Assembly (NCBI RefSeq): GCF_002854065.1
Contig: NZ_CP024147.1
DNA from: Escherichia coli
Lineage (GTDB): Bacteria; Pseudomonadota; Gammaproteobacteria; Enterobacterales; Enterobacteriaceae
Direction: 5' to 3' (one strand)
Length of the DNA stretch: 64,000 nucleotides
In this document: one piece after another, positions 8,360 through 48,430 of the stretch
Layout of the letters: every line of letters starts with the position of its first letter
Numbering within the stretch: the first letter of the stretch is position 1
The notes under the pieces: model-generated
Told to the model about the DNA's origin: nothing
What the model saw: the letters and a program-made list of their open reading frames with translations, nothing else
The model's database searches: none
Translations under genes and position numbers: made by a program

Positions 8360-8444
8360 GCCGAAGTGGCGAAATCGGTAGACGCAGTTGATTCAAAATC
8401 AACCGTAGAAATACGTGCCGGTTCGAGTCCGGCCTTCGGCACCA
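8360..8444 (+). tRNA. leuX: tRNA-Leu (anticodon CAA)
   Basis: Sequence GCCGAAGTGGCGAAATCGGTAGACGCAGTTGATTCAAAATCAACCGTAGAAATACGTGCCGGTTCGAGTCCGGCCTTCGGCACCA read directly; anticodon loop TTCAAAA; long variable arm. Confidence 0.9.
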
Positions 8445-8458
8445 TCGGAACATTAATA

Positions 8459-8481
8459 GACGTCAACGGACGTCTTTTTTT
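8459..8481 (+). terminator. Rho-independent terminator of leuX
   Basis: Hairpin gacgtc-aacg-gacgtc followed by a run of seven T. Confidence 0.6.
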
Positions 8482-8642
8482 GTGCCTGAAATCCAGTATC
8501 CGCAAGGCTTTCCTCGCTTTTTCACTCAACCTAAGTCAACCTGATTCAATTTACATCAACTTACTGATGCGGGTACAACTGCGGGTATATCGCGGTTCGA
8601 TAATGTTTGTACCCACACAGAACCCTTGAAAGGATACTCATC

Positions 8643-9899
8643 ATGGCTCTGAGTGATGTGAAGGTTCGTTCGGCTAAGCCTGAAGCAAAAGCCTATAAAC
8701 TTACTGATGGTGACGGTTTGGTTTTGCTGGTTCACCCGAATGGCTCAAAATACTGGCGGCTGCGTTATCGTTTTGGCGGTAAGGAGAAGATGCTGGCGCT
8801 TGGGAAATACCCTGAAGTGTCGCTGGCGGATGCCCGGGCACGCCGGGATGAAGCTCGTAAGCTGTTAGCTAATGGCGTCGATCCCAGTGAGAACAAGAAA
8901 GCCGTTAAGGTAGAGCAGGAGCAAGAGGCGATAACGTTTGAATTGGTTGCCAGAGACTGGCACGCCAGCAATCAGAAGTGGTCTGCATCGCATAGAGCTC
9001 GAGTATTGAAAAGCCTCGAAGATAATCTCTTTGCTGCTATCGGTAAGCGGAACATTGCAGAACTGAAAACGCGAGACCTACTTGTACCCATCAAAGCGGT
9101 GGAATCATCCGGGCGACTCGAAGTCGCCGCCCGTTTACAGCAGCGAACTACTGCGATTATGCGCTTTGCCGTTCAGAGCGGCTTAATCGACTATAACCCC
9201 GCACAAGAGATTGCCGGTGCGGTAGCTACGGCGAAAAGACAACATCGTGCTGCTCTGGAACTTAATCGCATTCCTGAATTACTTCACCGCATTGATCACT
9301 ATTCTGGCAGGCCGTTAACTCGACTGGCGGTTGAACTCACTTTGTTGGTTTTCATCCGTTCAAGCGAGCTGCGTTTTGCTCGCTGGTCAGAAGTGGATTT
9401 TGATACTGCCATGTGGACGATTCCAGGGGAGCGTGAACCGCTGGAAGGCGTTAAACATTCTCAGCGTGGTTCAAAGATGCGGACTCCCCATCTTGTTCCT
9501 TTGTCGCGGCAGGCTCTGGCTATTTTGGAAAAGATCAAAAGCATGAATGGGAGCCGTGACCTGATCTTCGTAGGAGATCACGATCCGCGTAAGCCAATGA
9601 GTGAGAATACGCTTAATAAGGCCTTGCGAGTAATGGGCTATGACACGAAAACGGAAGTGTGTGGGCATGGTTTCAGGACGATGGCGTGTAGCTCATTGAT
9701 TGAATCGGGTTTGTGGTCGAGAGATGCGGTGGAAAGGCAGATGAGCCATCAAGAGCGTAGCTCTGTGCGTGCGGCGTATATTCATAAGGCGGAACATTTG
9801 GGAGAACGCAGGTTGATGCTGCAGTGGTGGGCTGATTTTCTTGATGCAAATCGTGAGAAGGCGATGAGTCCATTTGATTTTGCCAAACTTAGGCGGTGA
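8643..9899 (+). CDS. P4-like tyrosine integrase (site-specific recombinase) of the leuX island
   Basis: Lies immediately 3' of the tRNA; N-terminal SAKPEAKAYKLTDGDGL...WRLRYRFGGK motif typical of P4-family integrases; C-terminal HxxR and catalytic Tyr region (HGFRTMA...AAYIH). Confidence 0.85.
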   Translation: MALSDVKVRSAKPEAKAYKLTDGDGLVLLVHPNGSKYWRLRYRFGGKEKMLALGKYPEVSLADARARRDEARKLLANGVDPSENKKAVKVEQEQEAITFELVARDWHASNQKWSASHRARVLKSLEDNLFAAIGKRNIAELKTRDLLVPIKAVESSGRLEVAARLQQRTTAIMRFAVQSGLIDYNPAQEIAGAVATAKRQHRAALELNRIPELLHRIDHYSGRPLTRLAVELTLLVFIRSSELRFARWSEVDFDTAMWTIPGEREPLEGVKHSQRGSKMRTPHLVPLSRQALAILEKIKSMNGSRDLIFVGDHDPRKPMSENTLNKALRVMGYDTKTEVCGHGFRTMACSSLIESGLWSRDAVERQMSHQERSSVRAAYIHKAEHLGERRLMLQWWADFLDANREKAMSPFDFAKLRR

Positions 9900-10229
9900 T
9901 TAATTGCGGTTTCTCCCACATTATGCGGAGGGGGACGATGTATTGGTTAAAGCGGTCCATCCGAAGGAGACCAGTAGTGCCAGCAGTAATGCTGTTACTG
10001 CTGGTTAATGACATGCTTTTTTTTGTCTATTTTTCAATCTGCGTTATGTCTCTCGGAGGTAACTCTGTGTTAAATATTGATAGGGCTAGTTTGCACAATG
10101 AAGAACCGAACAAAGTATTGATTTAACATTAGTATTTACTTAGCTGTTCTGACCGGTTTCTGCGATACAATGCTACCAAGTATGTAACTAATTCTAAGCA
10201 AAGGTGCTTTATAATCGAGAGGCGATTGA

Positions 10230-13200
10230 ATGGATGCTTTAAGGGCTACAACATCGACAAATTTCAGTTTTCTCGCTGAACATGACCCGCTGTTTCTACA
10301 AATCGCCACTGCTGCAGAAAACGCCTTCTCAGGCGATCCCAACACCACCTTGATTAAGTTGCGCCAACTAGGTGAAGCCTTAGCACAACATATTGCTGCG
10401 CTGGTCGGGATCACGTTTGATGAACCGCCCACTCAGGCTGATTTACTCTACCGCCTCAATCGCGAGCTAAAATTTGAACCCACGGTACTCGAGCTATTTC
10501 ATCTATTGCGGATAGAGGGCAACAAGGCCACTCACCAGTTCAAAACCAAGCACAAAGAGGCGCTAGATGGCTTAAAAGTGGCGCGAGCGCTAGCTATCTG
10601 GTTCCACCAATCTTTCGGCAAGCAGGGCGCGGCCTTTAAACCCGGCGCTTTTATTGCTCCTCCAGACCCGAGCAATCAGCTTAGGCAACTCCAAACGGAA
10701 ATCGATCGCCTCAAAAGTGAGCTCACTACCGCCAACATACAGCTAGATTCCAGCCAACAGCTGCAAAATTTGCTGGTGCAGGAAAAGAGTGAATATGAAG
10801 CGCTGGCGTTAGCCATGGATGATGAAACTAAGGTGTTAGCATCGCAGGCGAAAGAGCAGGAAATTGCACTCGAACAGCTTCGACAGCAATACGAAGAAAA
10901 ATTAAAAATCCTGCAAGCGCAACTGACCGAAAAAGATGAAAAGCAGGCCCGAACACAACGGCGAGAGTTTGCCCAGAAGAGCCGCCGTGCCAGCCAACAT
11001 ATCGCGTTAAATGAAGAACTCACCCGTATATTGATTGACCAAAACTTAAATGATGCGGGCTGGCTTGCTGACAGTCAGGAACTGACCTGGGCTAACGGAA
11101 CTCGCCCTGAAAAGGGGATAAACAAAGCCATTGCCGAATGGCCTACGGAGTATCAGGGTAAAAAAGGTCGCGCTGATTACGTTCTATTTTGCGGCTTAAC
11201 TCCGCTGGCCACGGTCGAAGCCAAAAAAGAAAACACCGATGTTGCGGGAAAAATTCCGCAGGCAGAACGCTACAGCAAAGGCTTCAAAATCACGTCCCCC
11301 ATGATTGGCGCATGGGAGCGGGAAGGCCGAACCATTGCATGGGCGGATGAGACTGACGGGCATTATATTATCCCGTTTGTATACTCCTGCAACGGTCGCC
11401 CCTACGTGCCACAGTTGGCTGAGTCATCAGGAACTTGGTTCCGGGACGTGCGCGAACCGTCCAACATCCGCCGTGCGCTGCAAAAGTTTCATACCCCGCA
11501 AGGCTTGCTGGATAAACTCGAACGCAGCAAAGACAGCGCCGAACAGAAGCTAAAGCAAGAAGGCTTCGCTTACCTCCGGTTACGCGATTATCAGCAAAAG
11601 GCCATTCTCGCCGTTGAAAGCACATTGGCGCAAAACATCCGCAATGCCCTTCTGGCGATGGCGACCGGCACCGGGAAAACACGCACCATTGTTGGTCTAA
11701 TGTACCGTTTTCTGAAAACTGAACGCTTCAAGCGCATCCTCTTTCTGGTTGACCGTACGGCTTTGGGCGAGCAAGCCACGGACACCTTCAAAGAAGCGCC
11801 GTTGGAGCAAAACCAGACGCTGTCTCAGATTTACAATATCGCTGAGCTCGGCGATATGGCTACACAGGCAGAAACCCGAGTACAGGTCGCGACGGTACAG
11901 GCCATGGTTAGCCGCATTTTTTCCTCGGACACACCACCGCCGGTGGATGAATTTGACTGCATCATCGTTGATGAAGCCCACCGAGGCTACACCTTAGATC
12001 AGGAAATGACTGAAGGGGAACTCTCGACCCGCGACGCCAGCCAATATCTCTCCAGCTACCGTCGGGTGCTCGATTATTTCGACGCGGTAAAAATCGGCCT
12101 TACCGCCACTCCGGCGAAACATACCAGCGATATCTTCGGCAAACCGATTTACATCTACTCCTACCGTGAAGCCGTGGCGGATGATTGGCTTATCGATCAT
12201 GAACCTCCAATCCGTTATGAAACGCTGCTGACGCAAAATGGCATCCACTTTGACAAAGGGAGCCAGGTGCATGCCATTAATATCCACACCGGAGAGGTTG
12301 AGATTGATCAGCTAGAAGACGAAGTGGATTTCAACGTTGATGCATTTAACCGTGGCGTCATCAGTGAAAACTTTAATCGGGTTATTTGCCAACAGCTCGT
12401 GAAAGAGCTCGATCCCTTTGGCGAAGAGAAAACGCTGGTTTTCTGCGTTACAGACAAACATGCCGACATGGTCAAACGCTTGCTGGATGAAGCGTTCTCT
12501 GCTGAATATGAAAACTATAATCAAGCGGCCGTCGAGAAAATCACCGGTGAAAGTGACAAAGTCAAACAGTTGATCAAACAGTATAAAAATGAACGCTATC
12601 CGAATATTGCAATCACCGTTGATTTGCTTAGCACCGGCATTGACGTGCCGAAGATTTGTAATCTGGTTTTCATGCGTCGGGTGAAGTCACGTATTTTATT
12701 TGAACAGATGATAGGCCGCGCAACACGCCGCTGTGATGACATTGGCAAAACGGTCTTCCGTATTTACGATCCAGTAGATATTTATGAGGCTCTCAGTGAC
12801 GTTAACACCATGAAACCGCTGGTCAAAGACCCCAATATCACACTTGAACAATTGGTCGGCGAGCTAACCGATACTGAACAGCTCGAAAAAGCGCTCAACA
12901 GCCCCGGTGAACATACAGGTGAAACTCAGGCTGATGTGGTGCTCAGCCAGTTAAGCCAAAAGGTGATGCGCATCCTACGTAAGGCGGAGAAACGGGCAGA
13001 AAATCGCCCAGTGGTGAAACAAAAATTGGCTGACCTCCATCAACTGTGGGGCGTTGAGCCAAAACAGCTGCATCAACATCTGCATCACTTAGGGCCGCGT
13101 CAGGCGGCAGCCTTCATCCAACAACAGCAAGGGCTAATCTGCCAGCTCAACGAGATAGCTACATTACTCGGAAGTGAATACCGGCCGATTATTTCTGAGC

Positions 13201-13754
13201 ATCATGACCAACTACAGGAACGTAACCAGAGCTACGGTAGCCATCAGCGGCCAGAAGATTACCTGGAAAGCTTTGCGGATTTTATTCAGCAGCAGCTTAA
13301 CCAATCCACTGCGCTGGCCGTGGTTGTCAACAAACCCCGCGACCTCACTCGTGAACAGCTTAAAGAGATCCGCTTATTATTAGACGGTGCGGGCTATTCC
13401 GAAGCTAATCTACAAACCGCCGTGCGTAATCAAACCAATCAGGATATCGCCGCCAGCATTGTCGGCCACATTCGCCGTGCTGCACTAGGGGAGCCTCTTG
13501 TGCCTTTTGCACAGCGCGTATCACAGGCAATGATCAACATTTATAACAGCCGCGCATGGACAACCCAGCAACGAAAATGGCTGGATCGTCTGGCAAAACA
13601 GCTGGTTCATGAAGTGATCATTGATCACCAATTTATTAACAATAGTTTTGCTGATGATGGCGGCGTAAAACAGCTCAATAAGATATTGGTAGACCAACTG
13701 GACAGCGTGCTGGATGAACTTAACGGTGCGATATGGCCACAACAAAGCGCCTGA
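10230..13754 (+). CDS. hsdR: Type I restriction enzyme R subunit (EcoKI family, type IA)
   Basis: 1174 aa; PD-(D/E)xK nuclease motif (RADYVLF...VEAKK), SF2 helicase motifs (LAMATGTGKTRT, DCIIVDEAHRGY, QMIGRATRR); collinear with remembered EcoKI HsdR. Confidence 0.9.
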   Translation: MDALRATTSTNFSFLAEHDPLFLQIATAAENAFSGDPNTTLIKLRQLGEALAQHIAALVGITFDEPPTQADLLYRLNRELKFEPTVLELFHLLRIEGNKATHQFKTKHKEALDGLKVARALAIWFHQSFGKQGAAFKPGAFIAPPDPSNQLRQLQTEIDRLKSELTTANIQLDSSQQLQNLLVQEKSEYEALALAMDDETKVLASQAKEQEIALEQLRQQYEEKLKILQAQLTEKDEKQARTQRREFAQKSRRASQHIALNEELTRILIDQNLNDAGWLADSQELTWANGTRPEKGINKAIAEWPTEYQGKKGRADYVLFCGLTPLATVEAKKENTDVAGKIPQAERYSKGFKITSPMIGAWEREGRTIAWADETDGHYIIPFVYSCNGRPYVPQLAESSGTWFRDVREPSNIRRALQKFHTPQGLLDKLERSKDSAEQKLKQEGFAYLRLRDYQQKAILAVESTLAQNIRNALLAMATGTGKTRTIVGLMYRFLKTERFKRILFLVDRTALGEQATDTFKEAPLEQNQTLSQIYNIAELGDMATQAETRVQVATVQAMVSRIFSSDTPPPVDEFDCIIVDEAHRGYTLDQEMTEGELSTRDASQYLSSYRRVLDYFDAVKIGLTATPAKHTSDIFGKPIYIYSYREAVADDWLIDHEPPIRYETLLTQNGIHFDKGSQVHAINIHTGEVEIDQLEDEVDFNVDAFNRGVISENFNRVICQQLVKELDPFGEEKTLVFCVTDKHADMVKRLLDEAFSAEYENYNQAAVEKITGESDKVKQLIKQYKNERYPNIAITVDLLSTGIDVPKICNLVFMRRVKSRILFEQMIGRATRRCDDIGKTVFRIYDPVDIYEALSDVNTMKPLVKDPNITLEQLVGELTDTEQLEKALNSPGEHTGETQADVVLSQLSQKVMRILRKAEKRAENRPVVKQKLADLHQLWGVEPKQLHQHLHHLGPRQAAAFIQQQQGLICQLNEIATLLGSEYRPIISEHHDQLQERNQSYGSHQRPEDYLESFADFIQQQLNQSTALAVVVNKPRDLTREQLKEIRLLLDGAGYSEANLQTAVRNQTNQDIAASIVGHIRRAALGEPLVPFAQRVSQAMINIYNSRAWTTQQRKWLDRLAKQLVHEVIIDHQFINNSFADDGGVKQLNKILVDQLDSVLDELNGAIWPQQSA

Positions 13755-13833: not shown

Positions 13834-15402
13834 ATGAGTAATAATAACGATATCGTACAAAAACTGTGGAACCTGTGTGATGTACTGCGTGATGACGGCA
13901 TCAACTACAGCGATTACGTCACCGAACTAGTGCTACTACTGTTTATCAAAATGGTGCATGAAAATACCGAAGCAGAATTATTAGATCAGCACACTTTACC
14001 GCAGGGCTGCCGCTGGAGCGATCTCAACAGTTTATCGGGCCTCAACTTGCTTAACCATTACAAACAAATGCTGTTGAAGCTCTCCAGCGGCAAAGACGCT
14101 GAAGGTAATTCGGTTCATGCTGACCCGCTGATTAGCGCCATTTATGACGATGCGCAGACCCGCCTGCGTGAGCCTCGTCATCTCGAACAGATGATCCGCA
14201 CCCTCGACCAAATTGACTGGTTTAGTGCTAAAAAAGACGGTCTCGGTGATCTTTATGAAGGTCTGCTGGAGAAAAACGCCGGAGAAACAAAATCTGGCGC
14301 AGGTCAATATTTTACGCCGCGGGCCTTAATTAACAGCATGGTACGCTGCATTAAGCCACAGGCTGGAGAAGTGATCCAAGATCCCGCTGCGGGCACCGCA
14401 GGGTTTTTGATTGCCGCCGATCAATACATCAAGCAACAAACTGACAACCTCTACGACCTTACTGCCAAAGCGAGAACCTTTCAAAAAAATAAAGCCTTTA
14501 TTGGTGTGGAACTGGTTCCGTCTACGCGCCGCCTGGCACTGATGAACTGCCTGCTACACGGCATCGAAGGGGATGACGAAGGCGTCGTGCATCAGGGCAA
14601 CGCGTTGGGCATGGTGGGTGCTAGCTTGCCCAAGGCCGATATCATTCTTGCTAACCCGCCGTTCGGTACGGCGAAAGGCGGTGAAGCCAGCATTACTCGT
14701 GATGACTTAACCTACCCAACTAGTAACAAACAGCTAGCGTTTTTACAGCATATCTACCGTAACTTAAAACCGGGTGGCCGTGCAGCTGTGGTGCTACCCG
14801 ACAACGTCCTGTTTGAAGCGGGTGTTGGCACCGATGTACGCCGCGACCTTATGAACAAATGTAACCTGCACACCATTTTACGTTTACCCACCGGGATTTT
14901 TTACGCCCAAGGGGTGAAAACCAACGTTTTGTTCTTCACCAAAGGCAGCGCCAACAACAAACATCAGGATGAAAATTGTACCGAAAACGTCTGGATCTAT
15001 GATCTGCGTAGTAACATGCCAAGCTTTGGCAAACGCACCCCGTTTGGTGAGCAACATTTAAAACCCTTTGAAGCGGTTTACGGCGACGATGCCAACGGTC
15101 AAAGCCCACGCAGTGAAGGGGAATGGAGTTTTAACTCCGACAAACTTGACGTGCCCGATAACGCCGAAAATCAGCACGTTGACAACCGCATGGCGACCAG
15201 CCGTTGGCGCACATTCAGCCGTGAATGGATCCGCGATGTTAAAGGTGATTCATTAGATATTGCATGGCTGAAAGATAACAACAGCGTTGATGTGACTAAC
15301 CTGCCTGAACCTAGTGTATTAGCGATTGAAGCAAAAGAAGAATTAACCACTGCTTTAGCAGAACTGGATGCTTTATTGACTTTATTAGGAGCAACTCGCT
15401 GA
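13834..15402 (+). CDS. hsdM: Type I restriction-modification N6-adenine methyltransferase subunit
   Basis: Strong collinear similarity to EcoKI HsdM (SGAGQYFTPR, DPAAGTAGFL, NPPFG motifs); start at the internal ATG 13834. Confidence 0.9.
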   Translation: MSNNNDIVQKLWNLCDVLRDDGINYSDYVTELVLLLFIKMVHENTEAELLDQHTLPQGCRWSDLNSLSGLNLLNHYKQMLLKLSSGKDAEGNSVHADPLISAIYDDAQTRLREPRHLEQMIRTLDQIDWFSAKKDGLGDLYEGLLEKNAGETKSGAGQYFTPRALINSMVRCIKPQAGEVIQDPAAGTAGFLIAADQYIKQQTDNLYDLTAKARTFQKNKAFIGVELVPSTRRLALMNCLLHGIEGDDEGVVHQGNALGMVGASLPKADIILANPPFGTAKGGEASITRDDLTYPTSNKQLAFLQHIYRNLKPGGRAAVVLPDNVLFEAGVGTDVRRDLMNKCNLHTILRLPTGIFYAQGVKTNVLFFTKGSANNKHQDENCTENVWIYDLRSNMPSFGKRTPFGEQHLKPFEAVYGDDANGQSPRSEGEWSFNSDKLDVPDNAENQHVDNRMATSRWRTFSREWIRDVKGDSLDIAWLKDNNSVDVTNLPEPSVLAIEAKEELTTALAELDALLTLLGATR

Positions 15403-16778
15403 TGAGTAAGATTATTCTACCTGAAGGGTGGTCCAATTGTACTCTTGCAGATATTGCTGAAGTTAACCCTAAAAAAATAGAGGCTGAACCTGACATAATT
15501 GCAGGCTTTGTTCCTATGTCTCATGCCCCAACAAACTATTACGGGAAATTAGAGTTTGAAGAAAAGACTTGGGGTGAAATTGGTAAATCTTACACTAACT
15601 TTAAAAATGATGATGTGATTTTTGCAAAAGTAACGCCTTGTTTTGAAAATGGTAAAGCAGCAATTGTAAAAGATATGCCAAATAATATCGGTGCAGGCAG
15701 CTCTGAATTTTATGTTCTACGCGCTCGTAATCAAGAGATACCAGCCAGTTATTTACTTGGGATTATTAAGACCAGAAAATTTATGCAGGAAGGTGCAGAA
15801 AATATGACAGGTGCTGTTGGTCTGCGCCGTGTTCCAAGGGCTTTCGTTGAAAGCTTTCCTTTGATACTTCCCCCTCTTGCAGAACATAAAATCATCGCCG
15901 ATAAACTCGATATTCTGTTAGCACAGGTCGAAAGCGCCAAAGCACGCCTTGAGCAAATACCACAAATCCTGAAGCGTTTTCGTCAAGCGGTGTTGGCATC
16001 TGCGGTGAGTGGAAAATTAATACCAAAGGATCAAAAGTCCAATGTACGATTTGATGTCTCAGTTGGTTCACTTTGTATAACTTCGTTTGATGGCCCTTTT
16101 GGGTCAAAATTAAAAACGGCTGATTATACAAATGCGGGTGTTCGTGTCGCTCGACTAGAAAATATTGGTCATTTAACATTTAATGATGAAAAAGAAACGT
16201 ATATCAGCGATACAAAATTTAATAGCCTAAAAGGAAATAAGCTCGAAAAGGATGATGTGTTATTCTCATCATTTGTAGATGAAGATGTTCGTGTATGTCT
16301 TTTTCCACATAACGATAAAATTTTTATAAACAAGGCAGATTGTTTTTGTTTAAGGATCAATCAAGAAATAGCATCACCAAAATATGTAGCTTTAACATTA
16401 GCAAGCAGAACTTCGTATGAACAAATTAAAGCACAGGTTCAAGGTGTAACACGACCTCGTATTAATTTAAAGACGTTAAGGTCTTTGTCGTTTACGTTTC
16501 CTTCTCTACAAGAACAAAACGAAATTGTTCGCCGCGTAGAACAACTCTTCGCCTATGCTGATGGCATCGAAAAGCAGGTACACAACGCCCTTGAGTGCGT
16601 CAACAACCTCACACAGTCGATTCTGGCTAAAGCATTTCGTGGGGAACTCACGGCGCAATGGCGTGCAGAAAATCCCGATTTAATTAGTGGTGAAAATAGC
16701 GCACAAGCATTACTGGTGAAAATTCAACAGCAGCGCAAAAACATAAAAAATATCAAACGCAACAAGGGTAATAATTGA
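15402..16778 (+). CDS. hsdS: Type I restriction-modification specificity subunit (two target-recognition domains)
   Basis: 458 aa; start overlaps the hsdM stop (TGATG); central and C-terminal conserved repeat regions between two variable TRDs. Confidence 0.85.
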   Translation: MSKIILPEGWSNCTLADIAEVNPKKIEAEPDIIAGFVPMSHAPTNYYGKLEFEEKTWGEIGKSYTNFKNDDVIFAKVTPCFENGKAAIVKDMPNNIGAGSSEFYVLRARNQEIPASYLLGIIKTRKFMQEGAENMTGAVGLRRVPRAFVESFPLILPPLAEHKIIADKLDILLAQVESAKARLEQIPQILKRFRQAVLASAVSGKLIPKDQKSNVRFDVSVGSLCITSFDGPFGSKLKTADYTNAGVRVARLENIGHLTFNDEKETYISDTKFNSLKGNKLEKDDVLFSSFVDEDVRVCLFPHNDKIFINKADCFCLRINQEIASPKYVALTLASRTSYEQIKAQVQGVTRPRINLKTLRSLSFTFPSLQEQNEIVRRVEQLFAYADGIEKQVHNALECVNNLTQSILAKAFRGELTAQWRAENPDLISGENSAQALLVKIQQQRKNIKNIKRNKGNN

Positions 16779-18481: not shown

Positions 18482-19647
18482 TGTTATTTTCACTTAATCC
18501 ACAGACGCCTCAATGTTCGGTATTTGCATTTCTTAATGCTGAATTTCTTCATTTTTTGCAAGCTACTATTAATGCTGATGTATTCTCAGAAAACTTATTC
18601 CGCACTTTTCCTGAGATGATTGAAGATACAGAAGTACTTGTCCCTAGTGTATGTTGGAGTAATGAGCCCACAAGAGAGAAATTTCTTGGGTTATGGGAAG
18701 CGCGGCCTACGACCGTTGCGCAGCGACGGGAGTTGTCAGACCAAATAAGTCAGGCTCAGGATATTAATGTATTTTTCAACAATACCCAAGCTGTATTGCC
18801 GCAATTAGTACCAGCCTCTTTATTCGAAGCATGTAAGGCGTTAACAACTCATTTGTTTACACGTACCAAAGATCTAGCTCAAGCAAAGTCACAATCCAAT
18901 AGTTCTATTGAAAAACATTATCAGAATTTCGTCAGAGAAAATAATAATAGCCATCTATGTCCTATTTGTGGCACTGCACTTCTCTCTCAAAATCGAGAAA
19001 GCGTAGCAGAGGAAGAACAATGGCGATCAGATTATGACCACATTCTTTGCAAAGATAAATATCCAGTTTACAGTGTCCATCCAGGAAACTTCATTCCGAC
19101 TTGCCATATTTGTAATAGTAAAGCTAAAGGGGCAAGGGACTTACTGAATACTGTTGGTCTCCAGAGACGATTAGCATTTTATCCACTTCCCCCATCACAA
19201 GAGTCATGTGAGCAATTTGTTGTGGTATCGCTTCACCTCAGTGACCGTAGAGATTTAATTGTGAATAGTTGGGAAACACCGTTGGAGTCAGCATCCATTT
19301 TATTCCCCAGAGCTCCAGCTGACATAGTAGATAAAATAGGTGTATGGAAAGAAGTTTATAAAGTACCAGAAAGAGTTGAACAGCATCTTAAGGTCAACTT
19401 TTGCGAGCGTATAGCCGCTGATCTACGACCAGTAAGCTTTGATGATTTCTGTGAGCAATTACATAGATATTCGAGACAAATGCCAGCAGACTATAGAAAA
19501 TCGGAATGGAGGTTTTGGTGGCAGAAAGTCTATGAATTCTTATCAGATCAAAATAGAGACTATTTACACGATGTGTGGATATTAATTGCCTGGAAATTAA
19601 GGTTATCAAATGATGCTGATATGGCTGATACGTTTAATCAAATTTAA
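18481..19647 (+). CDS. HNH endonuclease, PtuB-like partner of the ATPase
   Basis: HNH motif CPICG...DYDHI...NFIPTCHICNSKAKG; start overlaps the ATPase stop (TAATG). Confidence 0.6.
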   Translation: MLFSLNPQTPQCSVFAFLNAEFLHFLQATINADVFSENLFRTFPEMIEDTEVLVPSVCWSNEPTREKFLGLWEARPTTVAQRRELSDQISQAQDINVFFNNTQAVLPQLVPASLFEACKALTTHLFTRTKDLAQAKSQSNSSIEKHYQNFVRENNNSHLCPICGTALLSQNRESVAEEEQWRSDYDHILCKDKYPVYSVHPGNFIPTCHICNSKAKGARDLLNTVGLQRRLAFYPLPPSQESCEQFVVVSLHLSDRRDLIVNSWETPLESASILFPRAPADIVDKIGVWKEVYKVPERVEQHLKVNFCERIAADLRPVSFDDFCEQLHRYSRQMPADYRKSEWRFWWQKVYEFLSDQNRDYLHDVWILIAWKLRLSNDADMADTFNQI

Positions 19648-36035: not shown

Positions 36036-36512
36036 CTAAGTATTACTGGGATTATTAAAAGGGATAATACTGGCCAATCCGTCATCTACATCAAGACCAT
36101 AGGCAACTGCTATTTCTGCCACAGAGGTACCACACTTTTTTCGCAGTTTAAAAAGCGCTCGCTCAAGCATAGATACTTGCACAGGATGATCAAATCGGAT
36201 GAACTGAGGGGAGCCAACACTGTCACCGAATTCTTGGCATGCCTTTCTCATTTTCCTTAATTGATTTGCTAAATATGAATCGCTCGGTAAACCTTGTAGG
36301 ATTTTAGTCAATTCAGATCTAATGCTGATAACACTCTGAATGCAATGACTAGTATCCTCCATATCGACAGGATTGAAAAGAACTCGCTTGTCCTCAAGAA
36401 AAATGACGATCTTCTTCGCTTCGTCAGCTTCTATTATTGGAGCATTCCACTGAATCCCGAATATAGGGCAGCTAAGGCCTGTAATATTTTTATAGATTCG
36501 TTCAAATTTCAA
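36036..36512 (-). CDS. Hypothetical protein
   Basis: 158 aa ORF convergent with the preceding gene; no recognised motif. Confidence 0.3.
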   Translation of the reverse strand: MKFERIYKNITGLSCPIFGIQWNAPIIEADEAKKIVIFLEDKRVLFNPVDMEDTSHCIQSVISIRSELTKILQGLPSDSYLANQLRKMRKACQEFGDSVGSPQFIRFDHPVQVSMLERALFKLRKKCGTSVAEIAVAYGLDVDDGLASIIPFNNPSNT

Positions 36513-41229: not shown

Positions 41230-42105
41230 ATGAATAAACCTGACGGCCTTCAGGCCTTTGAACAACCGCTTGCGTCGCTTCCGTGCACACTTCGCCAGCT
41301 TATTCTTGAACGTATCCAGAACCTGACCCATTACGAGCCGGTGATTGGAATCATGGGCAAAAGTGGTACAGGTAAATCCTCTCTCTGCAACGAACTTTTC
41401 CGGGGCGAGGTGTCCCCGGTGAGTGACGTGAATGCCTGTACTCGCGACGTGCTGCGTTTCCGGTTACGCAGTGGGCGTCACAGCCTGGTGATTGTTGATT
41501 TACCGGGCGTGGGCGAAAACGGGCAGCGGGATCAAGAATACCGTGCCCTGTACCGTCGAATCCTGCCGGAGCTGGACCTGGTGCTGTGGGTCATTAAGGC
41601 CGATGATCGGGCACTAACCGTGGACGAGCAGTTCTGGCACGGTGTGATGCAAACTTACAGGCAAAAGGTACTGTTCGTGATTAACCAGGCCGACAAAATC
41701 GAACCCTGCCATGAATGGGATACCCTCACCAGCAAACCTTCACCGCACCAACTGGGAAATCTTAAAGCGAAGCAGGCTGCGATTATGGTGATGTTTAAAC
41801 CGCATCATCCGGTCTGTGTGGTGTCAGCCCGCACTGGATGGGGCATTGAGGAGATGGTGGCAGCCATGATGCGCTGTCTGCCTGACCGCGCCACCAGCCC
41901 GGTGGTGACACAACTGCACAGGAAACTCTGCACAGAGCCGGTAAAGTCGCAGGCTCGTGACAGTTTCGGTGAAGCTGTGGGCCGGGTTTTCGATACCGCA
42001 GAATCATCTTCGTTCCTGTCTACATCGCTGAAAACGGTGATTCGTAGCGTGCGTGATGCGGTGGTGTCGGTCGCACGGGCCGTCTGGGACTGGATATTCT
42101 TCTGA
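41230..42105 (+). CDS. YfjP/YkfA-family GTPase (prophage CP4-57-like)
   Basis: G1 motif GKSGTGKSS, DLPG, NQADK. Confidence 0.75.
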   Translation: MNKPDGLQAFEQPLASLPCTLRQLILERIQNLTHYEPVIGIMGKSGTGKSSLCNELFRGEVSPVSDVNACTRDVLRFRLRSGRHSLVIVDLPGVGENGQRDQEYRALYRRILPELDLVLWVIKADDRALTVDEQFWHGVMQTYRQKVLFVINQADKIEPCHEWDTLTSKPSPHQLGNLKAKQAAIMVMFKPHHPVCVVSARTGWGIEEMVAAMMRCLPDRATSPVVTQLHRKLCTEPVKSQARDSFGEAVGRVFDTAESSSFLSTSLKTVIRSVRDAVVSVARAVWDWIFF

Positions 42106-42348
42106 TATCGCAATTTTCTCTGCGAATGATGAACTTGTTGTTAATGATGTGTTGATTGTGGACACGTCCTTTCCATTGCGTTTTATCATCAACAAAATCA
42201 GGAGAAGCATCATTATCTGTCAGACGAGCGCTCACAAGGCCGGGCTGCTCATAAAAAATAGTTCCGATGTTGTCCATACCCTGTCCACCCCTTCCTTTAA
42301 AGTAATCATTATTAATTCAGAGAGTTAACTTCTCAGGAGAAATCTTTC

Positions 42349-43065
42349 ATGACGCTTCAGGAGCGGCGACATGACCGGCTTGCCGTCAGGTTGTCGTTGA
42401 TTATCAGCCGCCTGGTGTCCGGTGAAACTCTGTTTATTCGCAAACTGGCAACTGAATTCGGGGTGTCAGAGCGCACGTTACGTCGTGACTTTCGGGAACG
42501 TCTGATGTATCTCGACCTGGATTATTACCAGGGGCAGTGCAGTCTGCGCTCGGATATTCACAGTACGCGGCAGGAAATAGATATTCTGACCTTTGCTCAC
42601 CGTACGGGGCTGGCCGGGGTTTTCCCGGGCTTTGACCGGCGACTGGTCAGCAGCCTGCTGGACTGTGATGATCGACCCTGTCTGGTATGGCATCAGGACA
42701 GACCTCATCCCCCGGCAGGAAAGCTCTCCTTCTACAGGCTGGTCAGAGCTATTTCTGAATGTCAGCGCATCACCATTCTGACTGAAGGGGAGCGTCATGA
42801 GGCCGTTGCACCTTACCGGCTAATCGCTCTGGACGGTTACTGGTATCTGGTCGCTGAACATAACAGGCAATTACGTGTCTTCCGGCTGGATGAGATTCAT
42901 CTGGTAAGGCCATCGCGGGAAACATTTATTCGCAGTGAGCTTCTCTATCAGCTGTCGGAGGATAAACATTTTATCTCTGCCTTACCTCATTTCCGTTTTA
43001 TTCAGCAGTCGCTGAATTCATTTTCTCCCTCAGAAAGTCGGGGGCAATCCGGACAAACTGATTAG
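42349..43065 (+). CDS. WYL-domain transcriptional regulator (YfjR-like)
   Basis: N-terminal HTH ([14 protein letters not shown]) and WYL-like region (DGYWYLVA). Confidence 0.65.
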
Positions 43066-43100
43066 AGATGGTCTCCATAATTAAATGTAAGGTTAATCTA

Positions 43101-43553
43101 ATGAAAGAATTGAAATTGTTGTCTTTACTGCCAGTCATATTGTTCCCCTTACTTATCGCAGGTAATGCTCACGCAGCACGTCCTTATAGCGGATTCCTGC
43201 CTGCAGCAGTGAATAATAAGAGTGGGAATATATTCTGGTGTGATGCCCACCGCCAGGTCAGAAAACTGTGTACAGCGACGGAAGTGGATTCAATGGGATG
43301 GTTTATTGTTGTTCGCTCGAAACCTTCCAGAGATTGTCCGGGGGGCCTTTGGGGGTGGATCACTCCCAGTAAAGACGATGTAGCAACAGGGTATACCATT
43401 ACGCCAGGTAAAGAATTCAATCTCACCATGAAGGATATGTGCAGTCCCGATATGAAAGTAACGTTCCGCCCGAATAAAAAGGACCCTCGTTATGACGATC
43501 TCGTCGGGATTTATGCAGGGAAAGAAGCTTTTCGCTACAAACAAATAAAATAA
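43101..43553 (+). CDS. Lipoprotein/secreted protein (YfjS-like)
   Basis: Signal peptide MKELKLLSLLPVILFPLLIAGNAHA. Confidence 0.5.
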   Translation: MKELKLLSLLPVILFPLLIAGNAHAARPYSGFLPAAVNNKSGNIFWCDAHRQVRKLCTATEVDSMGWFIVVRSKPSRDCPGGLWGWITPSKDDVATGYTITPGKEFNLTMKDMCSPDMKVTFRPNKKDPRYDDLVGIYAGKEAFRYKQIK

Positions 43554-43624
43554 TCCAACTGTTTTTTCGTTACTTTATTGTTTTAAACAACAAAAGCCTT
43601 ATTACATGATTTGAGGACAACATT

Positions 43625-44098
43625 ATGCGACTGCCTTACGTAATATTTACATTAGCTATGCTGGCTTCTGTATCAACAGCACAGGCTATTCCCAATATGT
43701 GGACGAGTGGTTTTGGGATGGGCGTGACCGAATATATTATTACCAGCCCGGAGAAGGTGGTGTTTAATCTGAACTGTACTGGCAATCCGGATGCGCAGAA
43801 TATTCTGCAACACGGTGTTGATCTCACCCTGCCTGATGGAACATCAGTAAGCTCTCATGACGACGGAACGGAAATCACGGTCGTCATGGATAACAGTCAG
43901 TATCCGTTACCGTCATTCCTCGGCTGGCGAAACGGTGACAATGCCTGGGTGTCATTTATTGACGCCCTGAGCCAGTCTGCGAATTTTGATGTTTACGTCA
44001 ACGATAAAAAAGTCGGCACCTTCAGTCCGGGGCTGAAGAATACGCAGAAAGAGCTGTCTGACCTCAGTGAGTGCCGGACCACACACTACAGCGATTAG
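43625..44098 (+). CDS. Secreted protein (YfjT-like)
   Basis: Signal peptide MRLPYVIFTLAMLASVSTAQA. Confidence 0.5.
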   Translation: MRLPYVIFTLAMLASVSTAQAIPNMWTSGFGMGVTEYIITSPEKVVFNLNCTGNPDAQNILQHGVDLTLPDGTSVSSHDDGTEITVVMDNSQYPLPSFLGWRNGDNAWVSFIDALSQSANFDVYVNDKKVGTFSPGLKNTQKELSDLSECRTTHYSD

Positions 44099-44218
44099 TT
44101 ACTTACATTTCAGACCTCTCCAGCCCGCTACGCACCAACACCAGATAGCAACAGGCCATGCTCCTTCGGGAACATGGCCTTTTTTGTTTTTATTTGATTA
44201 TCAGATAAGGAGTTAGCT

Positions 44219-45040
44219 ATGCGACTAGCCAGCCGCTTTGGCCGTATAAACCAGATACGCCGTGACCGGCCTCTGACCCACGAAGAGCTGATGAGTCATG
44301 TACCCAGCGTGTTCGGGAGTGACAAGCATGAATCTCGTTCAGACAGGTACACCTACATCCCGACCATCACCATCCTCGAAAGCCTGCAGCGGGAAGGCTT
44401 TGAGCCGTTCTTTGCCTGCCAGACAAAAGTTCGCGACCAGAGCAAGCGGGAGCACACCAAGCACATGCTTCGACTGCGTCGCTCCGGGCAACTGACCGGG
44501 CATCAGGTGCCGGAAATCATTCTACTTAACAGCCATGACGGCTCATCAAGCTACCAGATGCTGCCGGGCCTGTTTCGTGGCGTCTGTACCAACGGCCTGG
44601 TCTGCGGTCAGTCATTCGGAGAAGTGCGGGTACCGCATAAAGGGAATGTTGTCGAGAAGGTGATTGAAGGGGCTTACGAAGTGCTCGGTGTGTTTGACCG
44701 GGTGGAGGAGAAGCGCGATGCAATGCAGTCACTGGCACTGCCAGAACCAGCCCGTAACGCCCTGGCGAATGCCGCGCTGAAGTATCGCTTTGGTGAAGAC
44801 CACCAGCCGGTCACGGTATCGCAGTTGCTGACCCCACGTCGCCGGGAGGACTACAGCGATGACCTGTGGACCGTATACCAGCGCGTGCAGGAGAACCTGA
44901 TGAAAGGAGGTCTGTCAGGGCGAACCGCTCAGGGGAAAAGCAGCCGCACCCGTGCTGTTATCGGCATTGACGGCGATGTGAAACTCAATCGCGCCCTGTG
45001 GATTATGGCAGAAAACATGCTCGAATTTTTCGGGCGTTAA
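44219..45040 (+). CDS. DUF932-family protein (YfjQ-like)
   Basis: 273 aa; matches the remembered CP4-57/CP4-44 family and gene order. Confidence 0.6.
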   Translation: MRLASRFGRINQIRRDRPLTHEELMSHVPSVFGSDKHESRSDRYTYIPTITILESLQREGFEPFFACQTKVRDQSKREHTKHMLRLRRSGQLTGHQVPEIILLNSHDGSSSYQMLPGLFRGVCTNGLVCGQSFGEVRVPHKGNVVEKVIEGAYEVLGVFDRVEEKRDAMQSLALPEPARNALANAALKYRFGEDHQPVTVSQLLTPRRREDYSDDLWTVYQRVQENLMKGGLSGRTAQGKSSRTRAVIGIDGDVKLNRALWIMAENMLEFFGR

Positions 45041-45070
45041 ACAACCGTTCCGGCATAAGGAGATAGTTTA

Positions 45071-45511
45071 ATGGATACCCACAACCCTGAGTTTGCTGAG
45101 CAGGCAGCAATTACTGCCTCGGTAGTCCCTGACGAGTTACGTATCGGCTTCTGGCCAAAGCGCTTTGGATCTATCCCACAATGGATAACCCTTGAGCCCC
45201 AAATATTTGGCTGGATGGATCGTCTGTGCGCTGATTACAGCGGCGGCGCCTGGAGCTTTTACACACTCAGCAACGGCGGCGCATTTATGGCTCCGGAGCC
45301 CGACGGTGAGAAGTGGACGTTGTTCAACCCGATGAATGGAAACGATGCGGAGATGAGCGGAGAGGCTGCCGGTATAGCGGCCTGCCTGATGGCATACAGC
45401 CACCACGCTTGTCGCACCGAATGTGACGCGATGACTGAGCACTATTATCGCTTACGTGACTACGCGCTAAACCATCCGGAATGCAGCGCCATTATGTATC
45501 TAATCGACTGA
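45071..45511 (+). CDS. Antirestriction protein, ArdB/KlcA family (YfjX-like)
   Basis: 146 aa; family call from the conserved core (FYTLSNGGAFMAPE). Confidence 0.65.
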   Translation: MDTHNPEFAEQAAITASVVPDELRIGFWPKRFGSIPQWITLEPQIFGWMDRLCADYSGGAWSFYTLSNGGAFMAPEPDGEKWTLFNPMNGNDAEMSGEAAGIAACLMAYSHHACRTECDAMTEHYYRLRDYALNHPECSAIMYLID

Positions 45512-45523
45512 GGAATACCTGAC

Positions 45524-46066
45524 ATGAATATCGCATTATCCCCGGTATCATCGCAGCCTGAACTCTTTCCGCTGGCGGTTATGGCCCAGCATAGTTGCCT
45601 GCTCCCCGCGACCTCCGGATTGACACCTTATGCCCAACGGACCATTCGACGTGCTATCAACCTGCTGGATAAATATCTGCGCCAGCCCGGCATGTCCTTT
45701 ACCTCAAGCACGGCTGCCCGTGACTGGCTTCGGTTACAGCTGGCAGGACAAGAACGGGAAGTGTTTATGGTGCTCTATCTCGATAACCAGCACCGTTTAC
45801 TGGAGAGTGAAACGCTATTTGCCGGTTCGGTTAACCATGTCCAGGTCCATCCCCGTGAGGTGGTGAAGTCAGCGCTTCGCTTCAATGCTGCTGCTGTTGT
45901 GCTGGCGCATAACCATCCATCCGGTGATCCGGAGCCCAGCCAATGTGACCGCAACATTACGGGCAGGCTTAAAGAAGCGCTGGCACTGGTTGATGTGAAC
46001 ACTCTCGATCATCTGGTTATCGGTTCAGATGGAATTGTGTCGTTTGCAGAGCGAGGCTGGATATGA
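45524..46066 (+). CDS. RadC-like JAB/MPN domain protein (YfjY/YeeS-like)
   Basis: JAMM motif HNHPSGDPEPSQCD. Confidence 0.8.
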   Translation: MNIALSPVSSQPELFPLAVMAQHSCLLPATSGLTPYAQRTIRRAINLLDKYLRQPGMSFTSSTAARDWLRLQLAGQEREVFMVLYLDNQHRLLESETLFAGSVNHVQVHPREVVKSALRFNAAAVVLAHNHPSGDPEPSQCDRNITGRLKEALALVDVNTLDHLVIGSDGIVSFAERGWI

Positions 46067-46076
46067 GGGCACTTCA

Positions 46077-46418
46077 ATGAAATCTACTGACTCAGAGAAC
46101 GATTCATTTCTCAAGTGGGGTCTGAATCGTAATGTGACACCTTGCTTTGGCGCTCGTCTGGTACAGGAGGGAAACCGGCTGCACTATCTGGCTGACCGGG
46201 CCAGTATCACCGGTAAGTTCAGCGAAGCAGAATGTCTTAAGCTGGATATGGCATTCCCGCATTTTATTAGCCAGATGGAATCGATGCTGACTACTGGTGA
46301 AATGAATCCTCGCCATGCCCACTGTGTCACCCTGTACCACAATGGTTTCACCTGCGAAGCCGATACCCTTGGCAGTTGCGGCTACGTATACATCGCCGTT
46401 TACTCCACCCATCGTTAA
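46077..46418 (+). CDS. Type IV toxin-antitoxin antitoxin, CbeA/YeeU/YfjZ family
   Basis: Conserved [22 protein letters not shown]...CGYVY region. Confidence 0.8.
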
Positions 46419-46438
46419 CTACTTTCACAAGAGCAAAT

Positions 46439-46780
46439 ATGAAAACTCTACCTGCAACAAATCCGCAGGCGGCGAAGCTATGTCTGTCGCCCGTGGCTGT
46501 CTGGCAAATGCTGCTTGCACGCCTGCTGGAACAACATTATGGCCTGACACTCAACGACACGCCATTCAGTGATGAAACGGTAATTCAGCAACATATCGAT
46601 GCCGGTATATCTTTGGCCGATGCCGTTAATTTTCTGGTGGAAAAGTACGGGCTGGTTCGTATTGATCGCAGGGGATTCGACTGGCAAGAACAGTCCCCAT
46701 ATCTGCGGGCAGTCGATATTCTGCGGGCGCGACAGGCAACTGGTTTATTGAAAAGAAATCGTATTAGCGCGGCACGGTGA
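46439..46780 (+). CDS. Type IV toxin-antitoxin toxin, CbtA/YeeV/YpjF family
   Basis: 113 aa immediately downstream of the CbeA-like gene. Confidence 0.75.
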
Positions 46781-47043
46781 ATATTGGGAATAGCCTTCCT
46801 GATTCACACTGCAGCTTTCCTTACTTATTTAATTTACTCATTCCAAAAAGCACCTGCCGATGCTGGTTGGTGCTTTTACTTATATGGACGAAATATCATG
46901 CAAATAGAAGCTGTAATTTTAACTGGGCACATTATCGCAAGTACAATCCGGGAATGCTGGGCCGTCGTTGTTGATGGTTTTGACGCATGCGGCGAACAAG
47001 CTTATGATCCAGCTTAATTTCTTTTCCTCATGAAGGGACGGGT

Positions 47044-48051
47044 ATGGGCAACAGAATGTGGATGATTCGCGGTGACGGCGGCAAGCTCTATGACGATTTT
47101 CGCGATAAGCAAATTGTAGGCATCGGTTGGTCTCAGCTGGCTCCATTAGTCAAACCCGGCCTGTCCCGAGCCCAGTTACTCGCCTTATACCAGGAGGCAG
47201 ATCCCTTAACAAAGCTGGGAACAGCCCGTTCTGGTGCATCGCAGGTCTGGCGTTTTGTGAATGAGATCCAAAAGGGTGATTGGGTTATTACCTATTCGCC
47301 AGCCAACCGTACTTATTTGCTAGGCAAAGTCACATCCGACTTCCAATATCATCCTGAATGGGTGGAAGAGGGGATGGGGATCGCTCGGCAGGTTAAATGG
47401 AATACTCAAGAAATCGACCGCGATAGACTGTCTGTTGCTACCAAAAACACATTGGGTTCTACGCTGACGGTTTTTCAGCTTCCAGAATATGCGCTAGAAG
47501 AGCTTTTGCAGGATAAGAAACCCACTATAGATGTAATTACTCAGAATCCAGTTGCAATGGATGAAGATGAGGTCGTTTCTGATCCGCTTCGCGATATGGA
47601 AATGCTGGCGTTTGAGGGTATCAAAGATCGTATTAACTCTCTTGATTGGGACGAGATGCAAAATCTTGTTGCCGGAGTTTTACGCAGTATGGGCTATAAA
47701 ACGCAGGTTTCACCTGCGGGAGCCGATCGGGGTAAAGACATCATTGCTTCACCTGATGGGTTCGGTTTTGAAAATCCGCGTATTATCGTTGAGGTAAAGC
47801 ACCGCAGGGAACAGATGGGAAGCCAACAGATACGCAGCTTTATCGGCGGTCGCCATAAAGACGATCGCGGGCTTTATGTCAGTACAGGGGGTTTTACGAA
47901 AGATGCTCGATATGAAGCCGACCGTTCGACGATACCACTGACGCTCTGGACACTTGATGATCTCGTCCGTGCGCTTATTGAGAACTACGAACAAGTTGAT
48001 ATCGAGACTAAACTTTTGGTGCCTCTGAAGAAAACTTTCCTGCCTGCCTGA
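47044..48051 (+). CDS. Mrr-like restriction endonuclease (Mrr catalytic domain) with an uncharacterised N-terminal domain
   Basis: C-terminal core GADRGKDIIA...RIIVEVKHRR...GLYVSTGGFTKDA resembles the Mrr catalytic domain. Confidence 0.6.
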   Translation: MGNRMWMIRGDGGKLYDDFRDKQIVGIGWSQLAPLVKPGLSRAQLLALYQEADPLTKLGTARSGASQVWRFVNEIQKGDWVITYSPANRTYLLGKVTSDFQYHPEWVEEGMGIARQVKWNTQEIDRDRLSVATKNTLGSTLTVFQLPEYALEELLQDKKPTIDVITQNPVAMDEDEVVSDPLRDMEMLAFEGIKDRINSLDWDEMQNLVAGVLRSMGYKTQVSPAGADRGKDIIASPDGFGFENPRIIVEVKHRREQMGSQQIRSFIGGRHKDDRGLYVSTGGFTKDARYEADRSTIPLTLWTLDDLVRALIENYEQVDIETKLLVPLKKTFLPA

Positions 48052-48211
48052 ATCTTGCTTTGATAGCCATATCGGTGTTCTACTGGTATGGCTTTATACC
48101 CACTTGCAATGTCTATTTTTTATACGGACTTTAACTTGTGGGTACAAGTGTGGGTATAACTATTTATTCCTATTTATAAACTGCATTGATATCAGTCTGT
48201 TAGGTGTGAAA

Positions 48212-48430
48212 TTCGAGTCCGGCCTTCGCACCTTCGCACCTTCGCACCATCGGAACATCAATAGACATCAACGGACGTTTTTTTATGACTGAAATCCGCG
48301 CCACACAAGGCTTTTCGCTATTTTTCGCTCAACCTAAGTCAACCTACATCAACTTACTGATGTGGATACAGCTACAGCTGCGGCTATACCCCGATTCGAT
48401 AATGTTTGTACCCACACAAAACCCTTGAAA
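48212..48430. repeat. Partial direct repeat of the leuX 3' end plus integrase-upstream region (island right boundary / older att site)
   Basis: About 220 bp imperfect direct repeat of 8422-8640 (shared strings ttcgagtccggccttcg..., ...cggttcgataatgtttgtacccacaca.aacccttgaaagg). Confidence 0.75.

Follow-up and report, generated by a model that had tools for sequence, protein, structure and literature searches.

The 64,000-nt stretch of Escherichia coli contig NZ_CP024147.1 (assembly GCF_002854065.1) analysed in this study, referred to below as the window, raises the question of what occupies the DNA behind its leuX tRNA gene: one mobile island or several insertions, where it ends, and what its many apparent defence genes amount to. 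An earlier reading of the window, hereafter the original prediction, had proposed a leuX island of roughly 40 kb with a right end at 48430. The evidence makes it very likely that this is a single integrase-bounded genomic island of 39,767 bp, a member of the KpLE2/CP4-6/CP4-57 family, whose islands are non-conjugative and target tRNA genes, and that it landed in front of an older, decayed leuX island. Judged by sequence, the island carries five predicted anti-phage or anti-plasmid modules, four of them intact and one disrupted, because the insertion sequence (IS) IS2 splits the gene for a prokaryotic Argonaute (pAgo).

Boundaries of the island at leuX

The features that define the two ends of the island, its attachment (att) sites and its recombination genes are as follows, with lengths of proteins in amino acids (aa).

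8360..8444, plus strand: leuX, tRNA-Leu(CAA) (ARAGORN; Rfam tRNA, 59.4 bits; sequence)
8643..9899, plus strand: P4-type tyrosine integrase, 418 aa (Pfam Arm-DNA-bind_3, Phage_int_M and Phage_integrase; phrog_1, 3.6e-63)
33455..33664, minus strand: AlpA-like excisionase/regulator, 69 aa (phrog_66, phrog_2790 and phrog_9834, 'excisionase and transcriptional regulator', 8.7e-9 to 4.6e-5)
48212..48249, plus strand: attR, the displaced leuX 3' end (repeat search and sequence; strain 744 junction, which is without the expansion)
48250..49672, no strand assigned: remnant of a second island (alignment to HCP6S3_I1; strain 744 integrase; PGAP names)
48250-48432, within the remnant: integrase leader without an integrase
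48729-48878, minus strand, within the remnant: fragment of a phosphorothioate-dependent restriction endonuclease, 50 codons (PGAP name)
49015-49665, plus strand, within the remnant: intact HNH endonuclease, 216 aa, ending 8 nt from nanS (PGAP name)

The single tRNA gene detected in the window by ARAGORN and Rfam is leuX, the final 23 nt of which (8422-8444) form the attL core. Its terminal 17 nt, TTCGAGTCCGGCCTTCG, have one further exact copy in the window, at 48212-48228, against an expectation of 0 from 100 dinucleotide-preserving shuffles, and none of the att copies is internal to the island. The attR reads TTCGAGTCCGGCCTTCG-CACCTTCG-CACCTTCG-CACCA and ends at 48249, which corresponds to the leuX 3' end with one G missing and the octamer CACCTTCG expanded to three copies (48229-48244). 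At the equivalent attR junction of strain 744 this octamer is single-copy. The span between the att cores is ∼39.8 kb.

An unoccupied version of the site was sought with a chimeric query, in which the left flank (ahr-leuX) was joined to the right flank (nanS-nanM), against 5,426 complete E. coli genomes, the set used throughout this study. The leuX and nanS flanks are ∼2 kb or less apart in 10 of these genomes, one of which, HCP6S3_I1, has no IS between them. Here leuX runs straight into sequence nearly identical, when aligned, to positions ∼48285-48720 of the window, followed by the same HNH endonuclease gene and by nanS, and the comparison with the window shows a presence/absence polymorphism at the leuX repeat. 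In strain 744, the right end of the island and the displaced tRNA fragment are found as in the window, followed by an intact second integrase. Since the empty site of HCP6S3_I1 and the right junction of strain 744 both fix the boundary at 48249, the right end is placed there and not at 48430.

The DNA beyond this point, 48250-48432, is 83% similar to the leader of the island integrase (8445-8640), a resemblance explained by its being the left end of a second leuX island in tandem. The whole of 48250-49672 is best read as the remnant of this second, older island, the integrase of which has been deleted, and lies outside the 39.8 kb element. This remnant is all that stands after leuX in HCP6S3_I1, and K-12 retains ∼250 nt homologous to it just upstream of nanS.

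The tRNA-bounded, integrase-carrying island of ∼40 kb that had been proposed is therefore borne out by the 17-nt repeat, the empty site and the strain 744 junction, and alignment to E. coli genomes, which had been suggested as a way of defining the att boundaries, places the insertion exactly at the repeat, with cargo that varies by slot. The long partial direct repeat described previously has to be divided, as the att core of the 23-nt class stands, whilst the remaining ∼190 nt belong to the leader of the second island, whose integrase is intact in strain 744.

The integrase shares 78% aa identity with K-12 IntB, its motifs RSSELR, HGFR and AAYIH can be read directly in the sequence, and both the integrase and the excisionase reading frames are intact. 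A P4-type integrase would recombine the attP of the island with the last ∼23 nt of leuX, so that integration would regenerate leuX from island DNA and move the former 3' end to the opposite boundary, with the AlpA-like protein as the likely excision factor. From what is known of these families, CbtA/YeeU and restriction-modification (RM) addiction may stabilize the island. As there are no transfer or capsid genes, spread would have to depend on helpers, transduction or recombination between flanks.

Relatives and the case for a single island

The island can be described as a backbone with three cargo slots. The backbone comprises the integrase gene, a block of yjhP, topAI, VOC and MFS genes, alpA, yfjJ, a gene for a 305-aa protein, and then GTPase, DUF932, anti-restriction, RadC and YeeU/CbtA genes. 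Slot 1, after the integrase, holds EcoKI-family hsdRMS translationally coupled to a PtuA/PtuB-like pair and then EcBPAN, a pAgo/nuclease system; slot 2 holds a DUF6650 gene and Gabija; and slot 3, after cbtA, a nuclease with an Mrr domain.

The closest relative is VTB96935v, which is 99.4–99.7% identical in DNA and is the sole complete genome to cover more than 80% of the left half. All coding sequences of the VTB96935v island map to intact open reading frames (ORFs) in the window with 99.5–100% protein identity, pAgo excepted. Of the 5,426 genomes, 1 has the left half and 6 have the right half. Strain 744 matches the right half with 100% identity, and its slot 1 contains a different type I RM system together with WYL and TIR genes. 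A sister island in SE11 sits at a tRNA-Thr gene (the thrW/CP4-6 site) with a different integrase and the same ordered backbone: Zn-ribbon, yjhP, yjhQ, topAI, VOC, MFS, DUF1349, GNAT, VOC, DUF1062, alpA-like, yfjJ and the 305-aa protein, followed by GTPase, DUF932, anti-restriction, RadC, YeeU and CbtA. Slot 1 in SE11 is filled by an ABC-three-component system and slot 2 by DUF2971 and hypothetical genes, and nothing follows cbtA; a sugar-utilization module lies within its yjh/VOC block. Outside E. coli, Serratia fonticola (CP072742.1, 165-14551) has the integrase, hsdRMS, ATPase, HNH, bAgaN and pAgo genes in the same order, with an intact pAgo of 731 aa, and this block is followed by PLD-like and SNF2-family genes.

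Taken together, these relatives place the island beside KpLE2 as an allelic, better-preserved member of one modular family, in which the contents of three cargo slots are exchanged. The claim that it replaces the KpLE2 content of K-12 has to be revised accordingly to one of sisterhood, as yjhY/yjhP and topAI are kept at 88–94% DNA identity and the integrase is 78% identical to IntB.

The same comparisons could be read as a chromosomal hotspot that was filled piecemeal by independent insertions and homologous exchanges, the integrase and the repeat marking the oldest event only. The right half being 100% identical to that of strain 744 when the left cargo differs, the strong heterogeneity in guanine-cytosine (GC) content, the presence of two IS elements in the window, and the decayed second island next door are all in line with such a history. 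However, the ordered backbone recurs with another integrase and tRNA in SE11 and with other slot-1 cargo in strain 744, as would be expected of a modular mobile family, only two att copies exist and none is internal, and one strain has a cleanly unoccupied site. Piecemeal assembly as a full account is consequently considered unlikely, although it is largely compatible with a single mobile island that keeps its frame and exchanges the cargo in its slots.

Several observations do count against a single mobile island. The GC content is 0.478 overall and ranges by segment from 0.39 (the ATPase-HNH pair) to 0.53 (Gabija), and this mosaic, with the segmental identity to relatives, implies that repeated recombination, and not clonal descent as a unit, produced the present island. 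The first ∼35 nt past attR are closer to the window's own attL arm than to HCP6S3_I1, which leaves the insertion history resolved in outline only. The 15-nt octamer expansion and the one missing core G in attR might impair recombination. Integration and excision by Int and AlpA are attributed from family knowledge, present mobility being putative, and the activity of every defence module is likewise attributed through homology.

That the element is a P4-like satellite or other cryptic prophage and not a defence island is highly improbable: the integrase is of P4 type, several backbone proteins match PHROG families and the homologous K-12 locus is annotated as a cryptic prophage or phage-like element, but neither the PGAP annotation of the 99.4–99.7% identical copy nor PHROG and NCBIfam scans of those backbone proteins that were searched turned up genes for capsid, tail, terminase, primase (alpha), Sid/Psu/Delta or lysis. 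A P4 satellite was rejected for want of P4 core genes, and as capsid, tail, terminase, primase and conjugation genes are all missing, the single island favoured here is neither a P4 satellite nor an integrative and conjugative element.

Cargo slots, backbone and flanks

The defence genes of the three slots are listed below in the order of the sequence.

10230..13754, plus strand: hsdR, type I restriction subunit, 1174 aa (PADLOC REase_I, 2.1e-269, full length)
13834..15402, plus strand: hsdM, EcoKI-family (type IA) methyltransferase (PADLOC MTase_I, 2.1e-223, full length)
15402..16778, plus strand: hsdS, specificity subunit (PADLOC Specificity_I, 1.9e-151, full length); start overlaps the hsdM stop (TGATG)
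16778..18481, plus strand: ABC-type ATPase, PtuA-like, 'restriction system-associated', 567 aa (PADLOC, NCBIfam, Pfam); start overlaps the hsdS stop (TGATG)
18481..19647, plus strand: PtuB-like HNH nuclease partner, 388 aa; start overlaps the ATPase stop (TAATG)
19676..20848, minus strand: bAgaN, PD-(D/E)XK nuclease effector of EcBPAN, intact (PDB 23wq, EcbAgaN; PADLOC Aga_Helical-REase, 3.7e-132)
20836..21180, minus strand: 3' fragment of pAgo, aa ∼628-743 of the long-B Argonaute EcAgo (tblastn of the 743-aa VTB96935v pAgo places aa 628-743 at 21186-20839)
21181..22511, plus strand: IS2, 1331 bp, inside pAgo (break in colinearity with VTB96935v; ends read in the sequence)
22512..24403, minus strand: 5' fragment of pAgo, aa 1-631 (tblastn, 100% identity over aa 1-631; PADLOC pAgo_II, 5e-231)
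37086-38903, minus strand: gajB of Gabija (PADLOC GajB, 5.7e-238, full length); 14-nt overlap with gajA
38890-40674, minus strand: gajA of Gabija (PADLOC GajA, 5.8e-234, full length)
47044..48051, plus strand: endonuclease with an Mrr catalytic domain, 335 aa (Pfam Mrr_cat, 3.6e-24, at aa 198-310; PDC-S02, 1.8e-81, full length)

All of the gene classes named in the original prediction, namely the integrase, type I RM, the ATPase/HNH pair, the pAgo/nuclease pair, Gabija, the Mrr-like endonuclease, CbtA/YeeU and anti-restriction, are present. Its count of at least four stacked defence modules holds for four that are intact, with the exception that the pAgo/nuclease module is broken by IS2. Going by their families, these modules would form a layered defence, in which the type I RM system would cut unmethylated DNA, the ATPase-HNH pair would act as a Septu-like second layer, Gabija would nick DNA, the Mrr-like enzyme would target modified DNA, and EcBPAN, very probably inactivated here by IS2, would kill cells in which it senses invading plasmids.

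The least charted part of the island is the unit of hsdR, hsdM, hsdS, ATPase and HNH genes. The HsdM protein matches EcoKI M (PDB 2ar0/2y7c) over its full length with 681 bits, which places the RM system in family IA, the comparison with EcoKI having been made for HsdM only. Matches of the ATPase in PADLOC are to PtuA (5e-44, partial, with the best stretch at aa 389-531 in the C-terminal third), AriA (1.3e-20) and PDC-M62A (6e-16). In NCBIfam it scores 170 bits (7e-50) against TIGR04435, 'restriction system-associated AAA family ATPase', under the cut-off of 300, and 44 bits against PtuA, for which the cut-off is 500. The Pfam domains are AAA_21/AAA_15, and the nearest solved relatives are PtuA chains at an E-value of ∼1e-5. 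Judging from known families, the ATPase-HNH pair may work like Septu, and it resembles the candidate family PDC-M62 only weakly.

For the HNH partner, Pfam and NCBIfam scans gave no match, a PDB sequence search was empty, and Foldseek returned nothing significant. Its motif CxxC...DH...N...CxxCN consists of residues that are invariant in 34 homologues, with identity down to 29%. The family comprises ∼125 clusters at 90% identity, the named sources of which are all Gammaproteobacteria bar one Phenylobacterium metagenome-assembled genome, and its named members are all annotated as 'hypothetical'. Ten homologue loci were examined for genomic context, and nine of these, all intact, read hsdR(EcoEI_R_C)-[Fic]-hsdM-hsdS-ATPase-HNH, the start codon of the partner overlapping the end of the ATPase gene. 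The nine lie on four contigs of metagenomic or SRA origin and in Vibrio, Vreelandella, Alteromonas, Serratia and Acinetobacter, in the last of these within a Tn7-like element. The remaining locus, in Methylomonas, has decayed and adjoins an hsdR fragment. A Fic gene is often placed between hsdR and hsdM in the homologous loci.

The order hsdR-hsdM-hsdS-ATPase-HNH is kept even where the HNH partner is only ∼31% identical. In all nine intact loci the pair stands directly after hsdS or after a gene inserted behind it, and no free-standing ATPase-HNH pair was seen among them. On the grounds of the stop-start overlaps of hsdM, hsdS, ATPase and HNH genes and of the order conserved in 9/9 intact loci, it is tentatively suggested that the five genes may form one integrated defence system, with the pair coupled physically or functionally to the EcoKI-family enzyme. 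By analogy with PrrC/EcoprrI and PARIS, the pair could then serve as a guardian, triggered by inhibition of the RM complex through anti-restriction proteins such as Ocr. A search of the accessible literature returned nothing specific on TIGR04435, on RM-linked Septu or on the ATPase-HNH family. The RM 'guardian' paradigm, as represented by PrrC and PARIS, has been reviewed (PMC12707154).

The second system in slot 1, EcBPAN, was characterized in E. coli as a catalytically inactive long-B Argonaute with a PD-(D/E)XK DNase (Song et al., 2023; PMC10620215). EcAgo is loaded with 5'-phosphorylated small RNAs, and upon recognition of target DNA it activates bAgaN, which degrades DNA indiscriminately; the system kills cells with a CloDF13-origin plasmid, caused no drop in efficiency of plating for any tested phage, and has little effect on viability when EcAgo or bAgaN is expressed alone (PMC10620215). 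By megablast, EcBPAN is present in 1/5,426 complete E. coli genomes. The window bAgaN matches EcbAgaN (PDB 23wq) with 867 bits over residues 1-390, and the intact pAgo of VTB96935v matches EcAgo of the same structure with 1684 bits. In the window, the pAgo of 743 codons is split at codon ∼630, leaving no intact long-B Argonaute, by an IS2 copy that is 99.9% identical to K-12 IS2K and is flanked by a 5-bp target duplication, CGTCC, at 21176-21180 and 22512-22516. As the insertion costs pAgo its last ∼113 residues, EcBPAN is very probably inactive here, with the bAgaN gene still intact. It may be speculated that the loss of pAgo was selected, EcBPAN being toxic with certain plasmids.

The Mrr-like protein of slot 3 has no Pfam domain in aa 1-197, and the family that it matches in full, PDC-S02, is a listed PADLOC candidate defence family.

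The remaining genes of the island, made up of the backbone and the DUF6650 gene of slot 2, are as follows.

24991..33238, minus strand (DUF1062 plus): non-defence backbone/cargo block of VOC pseudogene, Zn-ribbon, yjhP, topAI, GNAT, VOC, MdtM-like MFS, DUF1349, GNAT, VOC and DUF1062 (PGAP names on 100%-identical VTB96935v proteins)
33772-34350, minus strand: YagK/YfjJ-domain protein (PGAP name)
34756-35673, plus strand: 305-aa backbone protein (same-length protein in the SE11 and 744 islands)
36036..36512, minus strand: DUF6650 protein, in the variable slot adjoining Gabija (PGAP name; phrog_29952, 1.5e-96)
41230..46780, plus strand: CP4-type backbone of GTPase, WYL/HTH regulator, two small ORFs, DUF932, anti-restriction, RadC, YeeU and CbtA (PGAP names on 99.6–100% identical proteins)
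within 41230..46780, plus strand: WYL/HTH regulator (WYL, 1.1e-24)
45071-45511, plus strand: anti-restriction gene (phrog_10132, 6.8e-56)
within 41230..46780, plus strand: RadC (TIGR00608, 4.5e-45)
46077-46418, plus strand: YeeU antitoxin (100% identical to PGAP 'YeeU family antitoxin')
46439-46780, plus strand: CbtA toxin (100% identical to PGAP 'CbtA family toxin')

The DNA identity to K-12 is 88% for yjhY-yjhP and 94% for topAI. The topAI gene, at 26553-27061, is thus 94% identical to the K-12 TopAI toxin gene, and the antitoxin gene yjhQ is missing from beside it; the gap between yjhP and topAI is ∼220 nt versus ∼580 nt in K-12, neither GNAT protein of the island resembles YjhQ, and SE11 has a frameshifted yjhQ at the corresponding spot. 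The 305-aa protein gave no match in Pfam, PADLOC, NCBIfam or PHROGs, and its homologues (27 clusters) are found in Enterobacterales only. It is treated as backbone and not defence because a protein of the same length stands between yfjJ and slot 2 in both SE11 and 744. The tail from the GTPase gene through DUF932, anti-restriction, RadC, YeeU and CbtA matches the CP4 cryptic elements annotated in K-12 (CP4-6, CP4-57, CP4-44), as well as the SE11 thrW island. The identity of CbtA/YeeU is taken from public annotation, as an NCBIfam scan of the two gave no match. An Rfam scan of the whole window found the tRNA only, and so there is no retron or other known non-coding RNA in the island. Two intervals, 31660-32630 (970 nt) and 36512-37086 (574 nt), are free of annotated genes, of ORFs reaching 100 aa and of Rfam matches.

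The island is flanked by idn/ahr on the left and by nanS/M/C and fim on the right, in agreement with the core genes idn, ahr, nan and fim named previously. The idnR-idnT-idnO-idnD-idnK segment, which separates yjgR from ahr in the window (2054-7145), is missing from VTB96935v, and the left 'core' flank is therefore itself polymorphic. On the right, an IS1 copy 90.6% identical to K-12 IS1F lies inside fimH at 62226-62993 with a 9-bp target duplication, TAATTCGAG. As this IS1 interrupts the codons for PRVVYNSR|TDKPWP, the type 1 fimbrial adhesin gene fimH is disrupted.

Significance and comparison with known systems

What is rare about the island, which lies at a well-known defence hotspot, is the combination of its parts, most of which are known, and not its kind; the type I RM system, Gabija, EcBPAN and CbtA/YeeU all belong to known families. 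Current concepts are left unchanged, since among the defence hotspots of E. coli leuX had already been recognized as the busiest. What the locus does add is a natural chromosomal context for EcBPAN, in slot 1 of a leuX island beside a type IA RM system and, in Serratia, within a block beside a related integrase, as well as a natural case of this abortive-infection system apparently knocked out by IS2 with its nuclease intact. It also shows the 'cryptic prophages' of the KpLE2/CP4 type to be decayed representatives of a family of modular islands that has three slots for defence cargo, and offers a conserved five-gene unit of type IA RM and PtuAB-like genes as a possible RM guardian.

The leuX site has been published as E. 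coli defence hotspot #37, which ranks first in occupancy among 41 hotspots and carries defence genes in 97% of isolates (Hochhauser et al., 2023, cited in PMC12707154). The hotspot is described there as having an arm-type integrase at its left end and type I RM and other defence clusters 'with replacement', interspersed with metabolic genes (PMC12707154). The island in the window shares the anchor tRNA and the left-end arm-type integrase; the excerpted frequency table of the same source is without Argonaute, Gabija or Septu. With KpLE2 of K-12, the island shares the integrase family (IntB, 78%), yjhY/yjhP and topAI. KpLE2 differs in having a pseudogenised integrase, many IS elements and a cargo of fec, sgc, yjhFGHI and nanXY, and in being without RM, pAgo, Gabija and, as far as a search could detect, an attR copy.

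Amongst the individual modules, Gabija looks ordinary, with GajA (ATPase-TOPRIM) and GajB (UvrD-like helicase) in an overlapping two-gene operon. The EcBPAN pair shares the gene order of the characterized system, with overlapping pAgo and nuclease ORFs, but the pAgo of that system is whole and the one in the window is cut after about residue 630. With Septu, the ATPase-HNH pair has in common a partner that is an HNH nuclease of the PtuB type, but the ATPase is neither a full-length PtuA nor above its curated threshold, and the pair is not a free-standing two-gene system. The PtuB-like partners of Septu and of retron I-A effectors are also ∼210–225 aa in length, against 388 aa here, about half of which is extra. 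PrrC (EcoprrI) and PARIS (AriA/AriB) resemble the window pair in being nuclease modules based on an ABC-ATPase and tied genetically to a type I RM locus; the effector of the window pair, however, is an HNH nuclease and not an anticodon nuclease or a TOPRIM domain.

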